Positions 914 through 10,717 of a stretch of DNA of 12,236 bases are shown piece by piece. Both the position numbers and the translations under genes were made by a program. Every line of letters begins with the position of its first letter. Within the stretch, counting starts at the first letter, position 1. The DNA is from a virus, in UHGV virus genome UHGV-1337774, one strand, 5' to 3'. The notes below the pieces were generated by a model. That model was given only the letters and a program-made list of their open reading frames with translations. It had not been told where the DNA came from and did no database searches.

Positions 914-2635
914 TTATTTTTTCCATATATTGCAATAGCCTGGAGAATCAGATTCTGGTGGATATATTGGCTTATCTATCTGGATGGTCATAGGAATAGG
1001 GAAGTCAACCCCTACAAGAGCAACTTCACCTTGTTTGAGACTTGGTAGAAAAGATGCTGCAGATTTATCAATTTCACTGCATGCACGCTCAACGACTTCT
1101 CGATCTCGGTCGTTTGTTAAGCGATGAACCAATAAGGTTCCAATTTGACTAAGCACACCTTCAGTGATATCTCTGGGTCTTTGAGTTGTTAAGCATATAT
1201 TAAGGCCATATTTCCTGCCTTCTTTTGCAATCATCTCAAAAGCGTCAAGTTTAATTGCATGATCTTCAGAACCAACCCGTTTGCCAAGGAAGTTATGGGC
1301 TTCATCAACAATAACTAACAGCGGTCTTGTTCTGAATTTTTCAAGCCTAGCTAAAGTTAAAAGTTTTCTGCCGATTACATTGGCTAAAATTTCTCTAGCA
1401 TAAAACTCATAGCTAACATCACTTAGGCATAACCTTAGGACTCGTTTATCAGATTGTAAAAAAGTTTCTAATATTTCACCTAGTGTGGATATATCCTCGT
1501 TACTATTAAAAACAGACCTTAACGAGTTGGCATACGTTACTGCTTGAATTCTGGTTAACAAAGATGAGCAATAGCTTAAGTCTTGAGTTGCAGCGTTTCC
1601 CCAAGTATTATCTCCATTATCGTAACAACATTCTTGTACAATCTGTTTTATAAGTTTTGTTATATCAAATGGTTGTGATGGATTATCAACAAGTTTAGAG
1701 TTGTCTCCAGTATTCATTGCGCGTCGATAATCTGTTTTAGGTTGATTGATTTTTTTTAAAATACCATCGGTTGCTATCCTAGGTTCTAAAGCTACTAATC
1801 TAAGGCTTTTTATCGCTTCTTTTAGCTTAGGACCCTGTACTTTTCCAGAAGGATCGAACATGGCAATAAAGTCTGACTCAACAAAGTCGGTAGGTGGAAT
1901 TCTAAATTCTAAAGAATTTATGTTTTTATTTATTGGGGCACCTAAATGGTAATGTAAACAATAATCAGATTTAAACGATCTATACTCACTGGTTGCATCA
2001 ATTATTATAGTTTTAGAGTTTTCGTAATTCGAACACTCTTCAATTAACTTGGAAGTTGTCCAACTTTTTCCACCGCCTGTAGCTCCTAAGATAGCACAAT
2101 GACGACCGAAGAGTTTATCAGGTTCAACAGTTACTATACTTGTTGCCCCTCCAGATATAATGCCTAATACAATACCTATTCTTTCTTCCTCGTTATCTTT
2201 AATTCCTTTATTAATTAATTCTGGTATTAAAGAAATAAAATCTAAGGGAGCAGAATAAACTCGATCTCCTAATCGAGGATATGATTTGATTCCTGAATCA
2301 ATTCTAAAATTTGAAGGATCAATAGTTCCAAGAAGTTGTATAATGCCGATAGCATCAACTTTGAAGTTTCCTTGAGACCCGACAGATATTTCACCTCTAT
2401 CTCGCTCTGGTAATTTAACCTCTATTAAACGGCCAAGAACAATAGATTGTTGTCCTTCTATTAATAATATTTCACCAACTTCTCCTTTTCCATATCTACA
2501 ACCTTCTATATATGTTCCGCTGAGTTCCCCTGCATAGATTAAATTTGCTCTAACTGTTTGAGCAAAAATTGATGAGACTACTCCAACCTTAAGGTCGCCC
2601 CTCAAAATACCAAGCTGTAGTGTTGTATTAATCAT
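914..2635 (-). CDS. herA: HerA-like (DUF87/FtsK-HerA superfamily) P-loop ATPase, partner of a SIR2-like protein
   Basis: 573 aa ORF. Walker A GATGGGKS (in ILGATGGGKSWTTSKL) and Walker B-like LLVIVDEAH. Its ATG overlaps the upstream gene's TGA (ATGA at 2632-2635), indicating an operon. Confidence 0.75.
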   Translation of the reverse strand: MINTTLQLGILRGDLKVGVVSSIFAQTVRANLIYAGELSGTYIEGCRYGKGEVGEILLIEGQQSIVLGRLIEVKLPERDRGEISVGSQGNFKVDAIGIIQLLGTIDPSNFRIDSGIKSYPRLGDRVYSAPLDFISLIPELINKGIKDNEEERIGIVLGIISGGATSIVTVEPDKLFGRHCAILGATGGGKSWTTSKLIEECSNYENSKTIIIDATSEYRSFKSDYCLHYHLGAPINKNINSLEFRIPPTDFVESDFIAMFDPSGKVQGPKLKEAIKSLRLVALEPRIATDGILKKINQPKTDYRRAMNTGDNSKLVDNPSQPFDITKLIKQIVQECCYDNGDNTWGNAATQDLSYCSSLLTRIQAVTYANSLRSVFNSNEDISTLGEILETFLQSDKRVLRLCLSDVSYEFYAREILANVIGRKLLTLARLEKFRTRPLLVIVDEAHNFLGKRVGSEDHAIKLDAFEMIAKEGRKYGLNICLTTQRPRDITEGVLSQIGTLLVHRLTNDRDREVVERACSEIDKSAASFLPSLKQGEVALVGVDFPIPMTIQIDKPIYPPESDSPGYCNIWKK

Positions 2636-3930
2636 AATTGATTGTTAACTCCTACTTGTTTTATTACCTTAGCCAACTGTTCTGCTGGGGTTAATGCTTT
2701 AAGATTGGGAACTAATTTAACAAAATCACTGAAAGATGCATTTATGAAGTGAATGTCATAACCTGATAGTGAGAGTTGTTTTAGTAAATCCCAATATTTA
2801 CTAGAACCGTCCCCCCCTTTATTCCGAATATGAGTTGCACATTTGAAATCTACTATAATCAACCTCATGCTTGGATTGGATTTTATTGCTGAGTAAATTG
2901 GTTCAGAAAGATGGTCATCATTGAAACCAAATCCAGATATAACTAAACAGTTATTTCTTTTTCTCAAGAAATCTAACAATCTTGAAAGTAATTCTAAGTG
3001 AGGTTGAATAAAGGCTTGCTGATATTTACCTTTCGCTGGATATATTAGACATGCGTTTGTTGCTGTTGGTTGGCTGGATTCATATATTTGCCCATCCTTT
3101 CTTATCCAACTTACAGAACCGTGGAGTTTAAATAACTGGAATACGCCCTCTACAAACTCATGCTCGTTTTCATCTCTTTTAACAACATCGTAGTTAAAAT
3201 ATTTACCATCGAATCTGCGAACTCCTGTATATGAAAGACCATCAACTACCATCATTCCTAATTCAGAAGCAGCTGTTTCAAAGGCTAAATCATAGTTAGT
3301 TGTGAAAACTTTTAGTCTAGGATCTCTGACTCTCCTCCTCCCCATTTTTTGTAATAAATTGATGTAAGCTGAAAGATCACAGTTGCCATCATCAATAAAT
3401 GAGCGACATTTGTCTAAAATAATTGTTTTAACTTTATTTAAAAAATTCAACACTTCTTCATCATCATGAAATGCTAAATATGCTTCACAATTAGAAAGAA
3501 AGTGTTCTATGTTAGGATACTCTCGCTCTTTATATTTTACTTTATCACAAACAATTTGAGCATCAGGTTTTAATTGACCATCCTCGTTTATAGAAGATTC
3601 ACTCCACATTGCACACTTCCAGAGATCCCACATGCTTGGCCCTCCAACGTCCCCAAGCGAAGTACCACTCCCAGCGAAGAATGCAAGATTTGGGAATTGT
3701 AATGATTTTAGTAATAGTTCGTTTATATATGCCTGATTGTCTTTCAACTCCTTCTTTTCACCATCAGTAAGAGATTGTGCTGGAGAAATAGAATCTCCTG
3801 ACTCTTCTAAACTTTCATTCGTTATGTAGTCTCGCCAATAAATAAACGATTTACTATCTAATGCTTTCCAGTCGTTACTACCGGGTTTTAAAAATGAGAT
3901 GTATCCGTCCGGATTTGTAGTCATAATCAT
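2632..3930 (-). CDS. SIR2-like (SIR2_2 family) putative NAD+-consuming defence effector
   Basis: 432 aa ORF. Rossmann-like FFAGSGTS motif near the N-terminus, TTNYD motif and a downstream KLHGSVSW motif (candidate catalytic Asn/His as in defence SIR2 domains such as ThsA), plus GFGFNDDH near the C-terminus. Stop overlaps the HerA start. Confidence 0.7.
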   Translation of the reverse strand: MIMTTNPDGYISFLKPGSNDWKALDSKSFIYWRDYITNESLEESGDSISPAQSLTDGEKKELKDNQAYINELLLKSLQFPNLAFFAGSGTSLGDVGGPSMWDLWKCAMWSESSINEDGQLKPDAQIVCDKVKYKEREYPNIEHFLSNCEAYLAFHDDEEVLNFLNKVKTIILDKCRSFIDDGNCDLSAYINLLQKMGRRRVRDPRLKVFTTNYDLAFETAASELGMMVVDGLSYTGVRRFDGKYFNYDVVKRDENEHEFVEGVFQLFKLHGSVSWIRKDGQIYESSQPTATNACLIYPAKGKYQQAFIQPHLELLSRLLDFLRKRNNCLVISGFGFNDDHLSEPIYSAIKSNPSMRLIIVDFKCATHIRNKGGDGSSKYWDLLKQLSLSGYDIHFINASFSDFVKLVPNLKALTPAEQLAKVIKQVGVNNQL

Positions 3931-6480: not shown

Positions 6481-7019
6481 TTCTATGTAAAGAATAAAAG
6501 ATGTCTTATATCTGTTTAATAATTGAACATTCAACCTCCCTGCACTCAGTTGCATTTCAGGAAAATATTCATAAAAATGAATTTGTCTGATGTTCATTAA
6601 ACACATTCGGATACATGCGGAAGTAAGATGGTAATTTAATTTCTTTAATCATCAGATTTATTGATACATATGGTGAGCTGTTTATTTTTGGCCGTTTTTG
6701 GCTCTTTTATTAATCAGGTGTTGTCTTAGTGCTTATGATGTAAAGCCCTGAATGATATGGGCTGGTTCAGATTTGAGCTGTGATCCTGCCTAGTGTAATA
6801 GACTTTTTTATTATTGATGCTCCTTATTATATTCCATAAAGGAATTGTTTGTTTTTGTTCGTTTCATACGGTTTTTAGCTGTTTTATTTTTTGAGAAATC
6901 AACATTTCACACAAAATAAATAAAGCATGCGCGAGCCGCTTATATAAACATAATAAGGAGCTACCTGAATCCGCATGGAATTGCCCGGACTGTTGTAAAC
7001 ATATTAGAGAGGTAGCCAG

Positions 7020-7280
7020 ATGAATAGTATTTCCGTTTCCACCCCGGCACCAGCTGCTCCGGTGCTCCCGGTTCCGGCTCAGCAGGAGCGCTTCATACGA
7101 TTACCTGAAGTGATGCACCTTTGCGGGCTATCCCGTTCAACCATCTACGACCTTATCAGCCGCGATGCCTTCCCGCAGCAGATATCCCTGGGTGGAAAAA
7201 ATGTGGCTTGGGTACAGTCGGAGGTCAGTGCATGGATGGCGGCGCGAATTGCTGCCCGCGAGCAAGGAGGCCATGCGTGA
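7020..7280 (+). CDS. alpA: AlpA/Vis-family helix-turn-helix regulator/excisionase
   Basis: 86 aa; [50 protein letters not shown] matches the AlpA family signature. AGAGAGG Shine-Dalgarno 7 nt before ATG 7020. Divergent from the sid operon, as for P4 vis. Confidence 0.85.
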
Positions 7281-7373
7281 AACTTGCTTTGCAGTCTCAT
7301 CTCCTTTTTTCTGGCTTGCGTCCTGATATCTTTTCCAGGTATAGTTTTCCCGCTGCCGCAAAATCGGCTGCCG

Positions 7374-7623
7374 GGCGTAGGAACCCGAGTTACTTATTGG
7401 CGACACCAGACGCGCCGTGCGTCTTTTTTTACGTCGTTGCTCAGGCACACCCATTTTTCGGGCTGCGGTGCTTATACCTTAGCCCCTTTCAGATAATGGT
7501 GGTCCGGGCGGGGCAGCCTTCGGGCTGGCCGGTTTCCAATAAGGCCGGTATTCCTACCCCCGTTCGGGTCACCACCCATGAGCGTAGGAACTCCGGTGGT
7601 GGCATTTACCGCTACTTATTGGA
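7374..7623 (+). promoter_or_regulatory. Candidate P4-type RNA immunity / attenuation region (CI-RNA-like): direct repeats flanking a partly complementary segment
   Basis: Direct repeats GCGTAGGAAC...TACTTATTGG at 7374-7399 and 7583-7623. Between them, 7536-7569 carries CCAATAAG and TTCCTAC, complementary to the TTATTGG and GTAGGAA blocks. Also a UUCG-type hairpin CAGCC-TTCG-GGCTG (7514-7526) and CACCACC/GGTGGTG pairing (7571-7577 with 7596-7602). Complementarity is patchy, not collinear. Confidence 0.3.
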
Positions 7624-7633
7624 GGTTGCCCTT

Positions 7634-7825
7634 ATGGCTACGATCCTCGCCCCGTCACATCCTCAATTTATATTTGTTTTTGCCGCCGTTCGTCGTGCAG
7701 AACGTAAACCACGTATCAGTATGCTGCGTATCATCGCCAGCAATGAGCATCATGCACGTCTTTCACTGGTCCATGAGTATGTGCTTTGTCTTGCTGCTCG
7801 CCTGCCTGTCCGGGAGGTGATCTAA
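7634..7825 (+). CDS. Hypothetical small protein (63 aa), first of three coupled genes upstream of alpha
   Basis: ATG 7634 with a GGAGG Shine-Dalgarno 8 nt upstream. Stop TAA 7823-7825 overlaps the next ATG (TAATG). It is the in-frame 3' part of the long 7121-7825 track ORF, which I do not believe as a whole. Confidence 0.4.
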
Positions 7826-8049
7826 TGAATCACGCCGCAATCTCTTATGACGATATTCTCCGCCTGAAGCATCTTCGTAACGTGGGAGAGTTTGTCACTG
7901 GAATGGCTGTTCTTCAGGATTGCTACGAAAAACCTGCCAGTGCTCAATGTGAACAACTGGTTTCCCTGATTTATCTGATGACAGAGCAGCTTGATGGCGT
8001 GGTACAGCGTTGCCAGGATGACCTCATGAACATGGAGGTGGTGCAATGA
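7825..8049 (+). CDS. Hypothetical small protein (74 aa); position equivalent to P4 eta/epsilon
   Basis: ATG 7825 preceded by GGGAGG (7812-7817). Its stop overlaps the next start (ATGA at 8046-8049). Start is internal to the 7786 track ORF. Confidence 0.5.
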
Positions 8050-8369
8050 AATCACGCACTCTTTCCCTTTCACTTCGGGTAGCGTTGTATCGCCGCGCGG
8101 TAGCCTGCGCCTGGTTGAGTGCCTGCTATCAGCAAAACCGCCATCTGCAGCTCACTCTGGATGAAATTGAAACCGCTATTGCCCGTGAGCTTGAAGGATT
8201 TTATCTGCGACAGCACGGGCAAACAAAAGGCATGGAAATCGCCTGCGCCCTGCTTTCAGACCTGATGGAATACGGCCCTCTAATGTCCTGTCCCGCACTC
8301 TCCCAGCTCGGAATAGCCGTAATGGATGAGTTATGCGTCCGTCACATCAAAAAGCCGGTTTTACACTGA
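8046..8369 (+). CDS. Hypothetical protein (107 aa) immediately upstream of alpha
   Basis: ATG 8046 overlaps the previous stop. Ends TGA 8367-8369, 14 nt before the alpha start. No recognisable motif. Confidence 0.55.
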
Positions 8370-8383
8370 GGGAGAACTGCGTC

Positions 8384-10717
8384 ATGTCAGGAATGAAAGT
8401 CAGTCAGGCCGTGAAGGCTGCCCGCGGTCACTGGGCTCAGATTCTGCCAGCGCTGGGCGTGAATATATTGAAAAATCGCCATCAGCCTTGCCCGGTCTGT
8501 GGCGGTAAAGATCGTTTTCGCTTCGACGATCAGGAAGGACGCGGAACATGGTTCTGCAATCAGTGCGGAGCCGGGGATGGTTTAGCGCTTGTCACCAGGG
8601 CACTGAATGTGGATATCAGTGAAGCAGCTGACAGGATACATGGACTGACACATGATCTGTCTATAGTTAATTCCGAGGTCAGGACGTTAACCGCCGATAC
8701 CGATAGCGGGAAAGATGCAGCGGCAGCACTTGCCGCGCGACTGCTGCAAGCCTCGCGTGAATCTGCCGGAAACACTTATCTTACACATAAAGGTTTCCCG
8801 GAGCATATTTGCCATGAGCTGACTTCAGCTCATAAGGCCGGTGGTGTGATGTTCCGCCCCGGTGATTTGATCGTCCCACTCTATAACGCTGACGGGGAGC
8901 TGGTGAATATTCAGCTTATCAGTGGCAATGGTAGCAAGTGTTTTCTTAAAGGAGGTCAGGTTAAGGAGGCCTATCATCTGATAGAAGGGGGCGGGAGTTC
9001 TGTAAGAAGGATTTGGATTGCGGAAGGTTACGCCACGGCGCTTACCATTCATTATTTGACAGGAGAAGCCGTCATGGTGGCATTTTCGTCGGTCAACTTT
9101 CTTTCTCTGAGCAGCGTTGCCCATAATAAGTATCCTGGATATCAGTTAATTATTGCAGCGGACCGCGATCTGAATGGTTCAGGCCAGAACAGGGCTGAAA
9201 CTGCTGCAAAAGCGAGTCAGTGTGACATTGTGCTGCCACCGGTTTTTGGTGACTGGAATGATGCGCTTACCCAATACGGAGAGGAATCCACCCGGAAGGC
9301 AATTCTTGAGGCTTTGAAGCCACATAACGCCAGTCCTTTCGACACAATGAGTGAAGCAGAATTCACAGCGATGAGTGTCAGCGAAAAAGCTCAGAGGGTT
9401 CGGGAGCATTACAGGGATGCACTGGCGGTTGATCCGAACGGGCAGCTTTTATCCCGCTACGAGTCTGGAGCGTGGAAAGTTATTTCTCAGTCAGATTTTG
9501 CCCGAGATGTCGCAGCCCTTTTCCAGCGCCTCGGGGCACCGTTTTCCTCAGGAAAAATTGCCTCACTGGTGGAAACATTAAAGTTAATTGTTCCGCAGCA
9601 GCAAAATCCGTCACGTCATCTGATTGGTTTTCGTAATGGCGTTCTCGATACGCGAACAGGGCTTTTTAGTCCGCACTGTAAAGAGAACTGGCTGCGTACC
9701 CTGTGTGAAGTCGATTTCACGCCACCGGTAAAGGGGGAAACGCTTGAAACTCATGCCCCGGCATTCTGGCGTTGGCTGGACCGGGCCGCCGGACACAAGC
9801 CAGCAAAACGCGACATTATTCTTGCAGCGTTATTTATGGTGCTGGCGAACCGTTATGACTGGCAGCTCTTTCTGGAAGTGACTGGCCCTGGTGGAAGTGG
9901 CAAAAGTATTCTGGCTGAAATTGCGACCATGCTTGCTGGAGAGGATAACGCCACCTCTGCGACCATTGAAACGCTGGAGTCCCCGCGAGAACGTGCGGCT
10001 CTGATAGGTTTTTCTCTTATTCGCCTGCCTGATCAGGAGAAGTGGAGCGGCGACGGCGCCGGGCTTAAGGCTATAACTGGTGGCGATGCAGTATCTGTGG
10101 ACCCCAAATATCAGAATGCTTATTCAACACATATTCCGGCGGTTATCTTGGCCGTAAATAATAATCCTATGCGCTTCACTGATCGCAGTGGTGGTGTGTC
10201 CCGCAGGAGAGTTATTCTGCATTTTCCTGAGCAGATAGCACCGGAAGAACGCGATCCGCAGTTGAAAGATAAAATTGCACGAGAACTGGCTGTGATTGTT
10301 CGTCAGCTCATGCAGCGTTTCAGCGATCCGATGAGCGCCAGAACATTGCTTCAGTCGCAGCAGAATTCTGATGAGGCTCTCACCATCAAGCGTGATGCTG
10401 ATCCAGCATTTGATTTTTGTGGCTACCTTGAGGCATTACCTGACACCAACGGCATGTTTATGGGGAACGCCAATATTGTCCCGCGCCAGCCACGTACGTA
10501 CCTTTACCATGCCTATCTCGTATACATGGAGGCTAATGGCTTTAAAAATACCCTTAGCCTGACAATGTTTGGCAAAGGGCTACCAGTTATGCTGAAGGAA
10601 TACGGGCTAAATTATGAGAAGCGGCGAACTAATCAGGGAATGCAGACTAACCTCACTTTAAAAGAGGAAAGTAATGCAGACTGGCTTCCCAAGTGTGATG
10701 AGCCAACAATCAAATAA
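8384..10717 (+). CDS. alpha: P4 alpha-type bifunctional primase-helicase (zinc-binding primase + TOPRIM + SF3/D5-like helicase)
   Basis: Zinc-binding CPVCGGKDRFRFDDQEGRGTWFCNQCG, TOPRIM-like IWIAEGYATALT, Walker A GPGGSGKS, about 777 aa. Start placed at ATG 8384 with a GAGGGAGAA Shine-Dalgarno; the track's 8333 start would overlap the upstream gene. Stop TAA 10715-10717. Confidence 0.9.
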   Translation: MSGMKVSQAVKAARGHWAQILPALGVNILKNRHQPCPVCGGKDRFRFDDQEGRGTWFCNQCGAGDGLALVTRALNVDISEAADRIHGLTHDLSIVNSEVRTLTADTDSGKDAAAALAARLLQASRESAGNTYLTHKGFPEHICHELTSAHKAGGVMFRPGDLIVPLYNADGELVNIQLISGNGSKCFLKGGQVKEAYHLIEGGGSSVRRIWIAEGYATALTIHYLTGEAVMVAFSSVNFLSLSSVAHNKYPGYQLIIAADRDLNGSGQNRAETAAKASQCDIVLPPVFGDWNDALTQYGEESTRKAILEALKPHNASPFDTMSEAEFTAMSVSEKAQRVREHYRDALAVDPNGQLLSRYESGAWKVISQSDFARDVAALFQRLGAPFSSGKIASLVETLKLIVPQQQNPSRHLIGFRNGVLDTRTGLFSPHCKENWLRTLCEVDFTPPVKGETLETHAPAFWRWLDRAAGHKPAKRDIILAALFMVLANRYDWQLFLEVTGPGGSGKSILAEIATMLAGEDNATSATIETLESPRERAALIGFSLIRLPDQEKWSGDGAGLKAITGGDAVSVDPKYQNAYSTHIPAVILAVNNNPMRFTDRSGGVSRRRVILHFPEQIAPEERDPQLKDKIARELAVIVRQLMQRFSDPMSARTLLQSQQNSDEALTIKRDADPAFDFCGYLEALPDTNGMFMGNANIVPRQPRTYLYHAYLVYMEANGFKNTLSLTMFGKGLPVMLKEYGLNYEKRRTNQGMQTNLTLKEESNADWLPKCDEPTIK

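Follow-up and report, generated by a model that had tools for sequence, protein, structure and literature searches.

A probable P4-type immunity region with two regulatory RNAs in a satellite prophage of Escherichia coli

Between the vis gene and the replication genes of a P4-like satellite prophage, two short motifs are repeated on either side of a segment that is complementary to both of them. The question raised by this locus is whether such an arrangement represents an RNA-based immunity region like that of phage P4, in which an internal antisense segment pairs with flanking target copies, or whether the repeats and their conservation belong to a protein gene that crosses the same DNA. The window, i.e., the whole stretch of 12,236 nt that was analyzed, is an E. 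coli chromosomal P4-like satellite prophage located beside a tRNA-Leu gene.

Repeats, complements and RNA families downstream of vis

The gene context was taken from the RefSeq annotation of an identical copy of the element and from Pfam matches. On the plus strand the order is vis/alpA, the module under study, an Icd-like kil gene, a 74-aa ORF, a DUF5375 gene and the gene for an alpha-type primase-helicase; delta, psu and sid are found on the minus strand, and the element also carries an integrase and SIR2 and ATPase cargo genes. The vis/alpA-type excisionase-regulator gene (7020-7280, plus strand; Pfam PF05930 Phage_AlpA, E = 4e-20; an HTH regulator in RefSeq) is directly upstream of the module. 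The position of the module, after vis and before the small genes and alpha, is that given by an earlier reading of this DNA made without database searches (hereafter the sequence-only reading). The 421 nt around the module were present in 1,181 of 5,426 complete E. coli genomes, with 160 records at an identity of at least 99%.

Two 10-mers are exact direct repeats: GCGTAGGAAC occurs at 7375-7384 and 7582-7591, and TACTTATTGG at 7391-7400 and 7613-7622. The combined pattern GCGTAGGAAC-N(4-24)-TACTTATTGG had two matches in the 12,236-nt window and none in 200 dinucleotide-preserving shuffles, and hence the repeated motif pair of the sequence-only reading was borne out. The complementary blocks were also found where that reading had located them, between the two copies. 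The first, CCAATAAG (7536-7543), grows to a 9-nt complement (7535-7543) of positions 7615-7623, and the second, TTCCTAC (7551-7557), grows to 12 nt with 92% complementarity to positions 7372-7383. The description of this pairing as partial and not collinear was wrong, because the targets read 5′-a..b-3′ and the antisense segment reads 5′-b′..a′-3′, which is the collinear order that antiparallel pairing demands. For the antisense segment and its own two targets, the predicted duplex energies were -28.9 kcal/mol (upstream) and -29.1 kcal/mol (downstream). Neither value was attained in 500 shuffles of the antisense segment, which averaged -14.2 and -16.9.

The sequence-only reading had suggested a search against RNA families and a folding and covariance analysis as checks of an RNA-based element, and the outcome of both was favorable. 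The C4 model of Rfam (RF01695) matched the plus strand at 7492-7579 over the full model (positions 1-87) with 83.4 bits (gathering score, 45), and the isrK model (RF01394) matched the same strand at 7352-7429 with 72.1 bits (gathering score, 50). The two target copies (7375-7400 and 7582-7623) flank the C4 RNA, lie on the same strand as it and belong to the same putative transcription unit. This C4/CI-type antisense RNA consists of a 17-bp closing stem, a UUCG hairpin (CAGCC-UUCG-GGCUG, 7514-7527), which had been noticed before, a second hairpin with a 12-nt loop that holds b′ (CCAATAAG), and an unpaired junction that holds a′ (TTCCTAC). Its minimum-free-energy fold (-47.2 kcal/mol, z = -3.25) equals the family structure. 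Among 70 distinct relatives, 99.9% of the cells of this structure were paired, versus 23-50% when the partners were slid, and the closing stem covaried, with two-sided changes at 5 pairs; hairpins 1 and 2 were invariant because the loci had been picked by an exact 23-nt C4 core. A tRNA-like C-CCA is found after the closing stem (7575-7578), which is the one hint at a release of this RNA from a longer transcript by RNase P.

The leader RNA (isrK/seqA type, 7352-7429) presents a1 in a hairpin loop, followed by b1, and ends in an intrinsic terminator. Its seqA-type target copy (7375-7400) is made of a1 GTAGGAA (7377-7383) and b1 CTTATTGG (7393-7400), separated by a gap of 9 nt. The terminator, detected by a terminator scan at 7408-7430 of the plus strand (AGACGCG-CCG-CGCGTCT and then a T run), is nearly identical in sequence in P4. 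A third Rfam model, c4-a1b1 (RF03163, 'a1, b1 targets of C4 antisense RNA'), matched 7339-7391 with 43.8 bits (E = 6e-10), short of its gathering score of 46.7; P4 also falls just short (44.1 bits), and the same element is already covered by the isrK model. The fold stability of the leader was that of shuffled sequence (z = -0.05), so that thermodynamics give the leader no support. From the 72-bit isrK score and the terminal intrinsic terminator, a discrete leader RNA of ~78 nt is expected. Since this terminator is upstream of the C4 RNA, production of the C4 RNA needs read-through.

A putative PLE-like promoter (7316-7345, plus strand) was assigned upstream of the leader, with a -35 hexamer TTGCGT (7316-7321), an 18-nt spacer and a -10 hexamer TATAGT (7340-7345). 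These hexamers align with the TTGCCT/18 nt/TATAGT arrangement of P4, where the -10 is annotated as 'consensus -10 sequence' (X02534). A consensus promoter scan of 6800-8400 returned no sigma-70 site anywhere, the PLE-like site included, and only 3 of the 6 positions of its -35 hexamer match; the assignment was made by homology to the P4 PLE only and is a candidate one. We infer that transcription would start at ~7352. In the same scan of 6800-8400 no separate promoter for the C4 RNA was supported, and a -10-like GATAAT (7492-7497) was rejected as a C4 promoter, because it has no -35 and the start would fall within the closing stem. Also observed was a direct repeat of 30 nt with 73% identity. 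Its first copy (7303-7332) takes in the -35 region of the putative promoter, and its second (7451-7480) falls within the terminator-C4 spacer, where no promoter is supportable.

Downstream of the C4 RNA, the seqC-type target copy (7582-7623, plus strand) contains a2 GTAGGAA (7584-7590) and b2 CTTATTGGA (7615-7623) with a gap of 24 nt. The a2 word is in the loop of a 3-bp stem that was paired in 100% of 101 sequences, with covariation, and b2 overlaps the Shine-Dalgarno sequence of kil (GGAGG, 7621-7625), 8 nt before the kil ATG. Between a2 and b2 there is a segment, here called X (GGTGGTGGC, 7595-7603, plus strand), whose complement is found in the 3′ strand of the closing stem of C4 (GTCACCACC, 7568-7576), and both could form a 9-bp alternative helix. 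This helix was 99.2% paired in 101 distinct sequences, versus 22-70% in slid controls, with two-sided changes at 3 of the 9 pairs, and its P4 equivalent is GCTATCGCC/GGCGATAGC. The alternative helix would compete with the C4 fold and would put a2 in an 18-nt loop. To our knowledge, a switch between CI maturation and exposure of the kil start by such a helix has not been described.

Comparison with P4 and the word code among relatives

P4 matches the region at ~70% identity, and the mean column identity of the pairwise alignment is 81%. This alignment covers the promoter hexamers, the leader, the terminator, the CI core, seqC and the start of kil. The Rfam matches in P4 come in the same order, isrK at 1915-1992, C4 at 2100-2187 (the CI RNA gene) and the c4-a1b1 match mentioned above, and the order, spacing and strand of the elements are alike, as is the context (sid, psu, delta, vis, alpha). 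In both elements the eta-type start overlaps the vis stop, with ATGA in P4 and GTGA here. In contrast, the pairing words differ. Word a is GTAGGAA here and GTGAGAA in P4, with the complements TTCCTAC and TTCTCAC, respectively; word b is CTTATTGG here and TTCACAGG in P4, with the complements CCAATAAG and CCTGTGAA. The differences between the window and P4 cluster in these words, and they are concerted in all three copies. Furthermore, the terminator-CI spacer is 45 nt shorter in the present element, and the interval between kil and DUF5375 holds epsilon (PF25738) and orf151 in P4 but a 74-aa ORF without a family match here.

The duplexes predicted between the antisense segment of the window and the two targets of P4 had energies of only -7.2 and -15.4 kcal/mol. 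Because the words differ from those of P4, and because the non-cognate duplexes are much weaker than the cognate ones, the present element is predicted to be heteroimmune to P4. The P4-like phage phiR73 is experimentally heteroimmune to P4; it was not among the matches listed from the phage collection.

The matches to the C4 and isrK families, the alignment with P4 with its concerted words and the gene order bear out the P4-like CI RNA design that the sequence-only reading had put forward, in which an internal segment pairs with flanking copies. We therefore hold with high confidence that a P4-like satellite prophage has its immunity region here, and that this region is built as in P4. IsrK has been described as a structural homolog of the P4 SeqA RNA, and CI as pairing with seqA and seqC (PMC4825925), and an 'IsrK-C4 immunity system of P4' has been named in P4-like prophages (PMC3632133). 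Hence, the correspondence of IsrK and C4 to the seqA and CI RNAs of P4 is already in the literature, and the present module is a further member, with a predicted heteroimmune specificity, of a known system.

Relatives were obtained by scanning two public collections for the 23-nt C4 core, which gave 240 loci, of which 195 unique full-length segments were used; this sample is biased by the exact-core selection and its members are phylogenetically related, so that the counts given below are not counts of independent events. About 170 of the 195 relatives have the same gene neighbors as the present element. In a profile search of 190 loci, 178 had a homolog of the leader ahead of C4, among them every one of the 164 loci with P4-type neighbors, and in 171 the match also covered the terminator part of the profile. 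A strict hairpin-plus-T-run rule recognized leader terminators in only 87 of the 190 loci, which is an undercount when compared with the profile search.

The 195 relatives combine 48 b′ loops with 15 a′ junctions in 75 different ways. An exact complement (7 nt or longer) of the b′ loop was found in the element's own upstream flank in 89% of cases, versus 5.6% for the flanks of elements with other loops, and in its own downstream flank in 92%, versus 8.4%. For the a′ word, the mean match was 6.2 nt, compared with 4.1 nt for non-cognate pairs. Both words were concordant on both sides in 162 of the 195 relatives, with fixed gaps of 9 nt between a1 and b1 and 24 nt between a2 and b2, and the b2 match usually reached one base into the GGAGG Shine-Dalgarno sequence.

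The a and b words in the C4 loops and junctions of the relatives assort almost freely. The loop TTTCCAATAAGG, for instance, pairs up with five different a′ words, and every one of these combinations is concordant at all three sites. For words to be re-assorted in this way, three sites that lie apart must change in concert, and this points to gene conversion or multiple crossovers. A bolder proposal, which we put forward only tentatively and consider rather unlikely as a whole, is that the words form a modular two-word immunity code with frequent concerted re-assortment, giving rise to many mutually heteroimmune types, and that the alternative helix may in addition act as a switch between CI maturation and the kil start.

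Reading frames, proposed mechanism and competing explanations

An eta-like long ORF (7277-7825, plus strand), which is the RefSeq CDS, spans both RNAs, and its last 63 codons are kil. AAGGAGG (7264-7270) precedes its GTG start (7277), which shares bases with the vis stop (GTGA). This frame, which ends at 7825 and has kil nested in it, corresponds to eta of P4. In P4, eta is translated only to prevent termination, and Kil is a truncated form of eta translated from an internal promoter (PMC10111431). Past the module, the first gene to be translated is kil (Icd-like, 63 aa; 7634-7825, plus strand; NCBIfam NF033153 phage_ICD_like, E = 9e-20), whose product is ~71% identical to P4 Kil. Over the C4 RNA and the leader, the eta-like frame is open in 94% of 171 relatives, and the other frames in 6% and 0.6%. 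The sequence-only reading had taken the long ORFs over this region as possible artefacts of structured RNA. This does not hold for the frame ending at 7825, which is eta/kil, but it is probably right for the ORFs 7284-7496 and 7578-7820, which belong to another frame that is open over the 5′ side of C4 in 9% of the relatives.

The same reading had named a conserved synonymous-substitution pattern across the segment as evidence against an RNA element, and the variability by codon position revealed no such pattern over the RNAs. The values for the three positions were 0.36/0.39/0.39 in the C4 RNA and 0.86/0.80/0.70 in seqC, i.e., without codon periodicity, whereas the kil part had a third-position excess (0.55/0.47/1.10). 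The eta-like frame is therefore kept open, yet the sequence over the RNAs is shaped by constraints on the RNAs.

RefSeq presents the whole module as one CDS of 182 aa, 'host cell division inhibitor Icd-like protein', without ncRNA features; in the identical genome copy this CDS is at 7998-8546. Of these 182 residues, only the last 48-63 belong to the curated Icd-like domain.

The mechanism of P4 and P1 immunity is reportedly found in work by Citron and Schuster in 1990, Deho in 1992, Sabbattini in 1995 and Forti in 1995, 1999 and 2002. The steps proposed here for the present element were drawn by analogy from secondary summaries (PMC4825925, PMC3632133 and, for P4 eta, kil and CI, PMC10111431) together with what is known of P4 and P1. 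By analogy with these phages, transcripts that start at the PLE-like promoter and continue past the leader terminator would be processed to a stable CI-type RNA, which a cut by RNase P at its 5′ side would free. The CI-type RNA would then pair in trans with nascent left-operon transcripts, a′ and b′ meeting their a and b words in two short kissing contacts. Pairing with a2/b2 would occlude the ribosome-binding site of kil and block its translation, and the untranslated RNA would be terminated by Rho before the replication genes (DUF5375/cnr-like and alpha primase-helicase). As a result, the prophage would be kept silent and incoming elements with the same words would be excluded. Transcripts from an upstream vis promoter, in which eta is translated across the region, would escape from termination.

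Three other explanations were weighed against this model. The repeats and complements could have come together by chance in GC-rich sequence, for which nothing speaks beyond the shortness of the words (7-10 nt); the pattern with two occurrences in the window and none in the shuffles, the duplex energies that no shuffled antisense segment attained, and the recurrence of the same geometry with different words in the 162 concordant relatives already refute it, and chance was rejected as having practically no probability. The conservation and the repeats could also be due to a protein gene ('Ash' family/Icd-like CDS 7277-7825) and not to functional RNAs, as would agree with the single RefSeq CDS over the whole segment, with the frame kept open in nearly all relatives and with the match of residues 22-131 of the ORF to Pfam PF10554 Phage_ASH (E = 5e-33). 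However, codon periodicity is lacking over C4 and seqC and clear in the kil part, to which the curated Icd-like domain is limited as well, and neither the compensatory substitutions in the stems nor the concerted change in three separate copies of the words is predicted by protein constraint. In addition, the former 'cI/ash' ORF of P4 is now taken as an RNA gene (PMC10111431). The protein-only reading based on PF10554 was thus rejected on the codon-position evidence, and we regard it as very improbable.

The third explanation bears on the leader and could coexist with the P4 model, as the two are not exclusive. As in the IsrK system of Gifsy-1, the terminated leader would be an RNA acting in trans. 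By pairing either with free CI RNA or with the C4-like part of transcripts that run past the terminator, it would activate translation downstream and would thus be an anti-immunity or induction switch and not a passive target. The high isrK score together with the intrinsic terminator, by which a discrete RNA of ~78 nt is expected, and the complementarity of a1 and b1 of the leader to the C4 loops are in line with such a role. In Gifsy-1 the short IsrK binds the read-through transcript and turns on translation of orf45-anrP, and IsrK and the C4-like STnc1160 share complementary sequences according to the same authors (PMC4825925); moreover, TraDIS indicated that the IsrK-like element is required in P4-like prophages of S. 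Typhi (PMC3632133). The likeness of the IsrK-orf45/STnc1160-anrP region to the present one thus extends to an isrK-family leader, a read-through terminator and complementarity to a downstream C4-like RNA. On the other hand, the Gifsy-1 leader activates an antirepressor operon, which leads to AntQ toxicity, and the present module leads only to replication genes, with neither an antirepressor nor an antQ-type gene among them. Binding of Hfq, as well as activation in trans of the read-through transcript, is known for Gifsy-1 only (PMC4825925). The P4 seqA copy is described, in contrast, as the target needed for CI-dependent termination and for the establishment of lysogeny (PMC4825925, PMC3632133). 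An active role of the leader is therefore a minority option that we deem rather unlikely, and the role of the upstream target copy is less settled than that of the downstream copy.

Related systems and neighboring genes

The immI region of P1/P7 shares with the present module the RNA family (C4, RF01695), the two-word logic, the target copies on both sides and the placement of the downstream copy over the ribosome-binding site of an Icd-like gene that directly follows it. The link between a block of translation and termination is known from P1 and P4. The two arrangements differ in what lies downstream, a satellite replication operon here and the antirepressor (ant) there: past the Icd-like kil no antirepressor gene was found, and the 74-aa ORF without a family match, DUF5375 and the primase-helicase are encountered instead. 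Phage phiKO2 and Klebsiella phages have the leader and C4, and Stx phages have C4 and seqC beside Ant or Icd-like genes, in both cases with 70-80% DNA identity to the module. This identity indicates that the same RNA cassette circulates among satellites and helper-independent temperate phages; N15/phiKO2-type and Stx phages are of the latter kind, and in them the module controls anti-repressor operons. A similar cassette was seen in the phage records of phiKO2, KpLi5, PY54 and Stx1/Stx2 phages, those of the phiKO2 type being linear plasmid prophages.

P4-like satellites, which bring anti-phage cargo with them, inhabit a large share of enterobacterial genomes, and the immunity words decide which of them coexist or exclude one another in one cell. 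A catalogue of the word combinations could predict heteroimmunity groups and help to test the role of the seqA/IsrK leader. What is new here is not the module itself but the combinatorial assortment of the a and b words and the conserved alternative helix. For this locus the gain is in annotation, since one RefSeq CDS hides two regulatory RNAs, two target sites and a nested kil.

In P4 as in the present element, PF10554 (here window 7340-7669, codons 22-131) matches the translation, in the eta frame, of the DNA that encodes the isrK and C4 RNAs. In P4, where the regions 1840-2439 and 2432-2719 were compared, the epsilon/ash protein proper belongs to another family, PF25738, and between kil and alpha of the present element there is no PF25738 gene. 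A survey of P4-like satellites lists PF10554 as an epsilon marker (PMC8628076); this marker may track the immunity RNA region instead.

The 74-aa ORF (7825-8049) has a start that overlaps the kil stop (TAATG), and it gave no match in Pfam or NCBIfam. A 75-aa protein that P4 lacks has been reported in 61% of P4-like elements (PMC8628076), and this ORF may encode that protein.

Between the integrase and delta/psu/sid, the minus strand carries at 914-3930 the cargo genes for a 573-aa HerA-like ATPase (DUF87, HerA_C) and a 432-aa SIR2_2 protein, which by their domains look like an anti-phage system of the SIR2-HerA type. This cargo sits where P4-like satellites are known to have a defence hotspot. 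Past alpha there is a second tyrosine integrase gene, from ~11287 to the end of the window, and in the identical genome copy (12008-16421) genes for a Ser/Thr kinase, a hypothetical protein and a HerA-domain helicase come after this second integrase, which suggests that another island is integrated in tandem after alpha.
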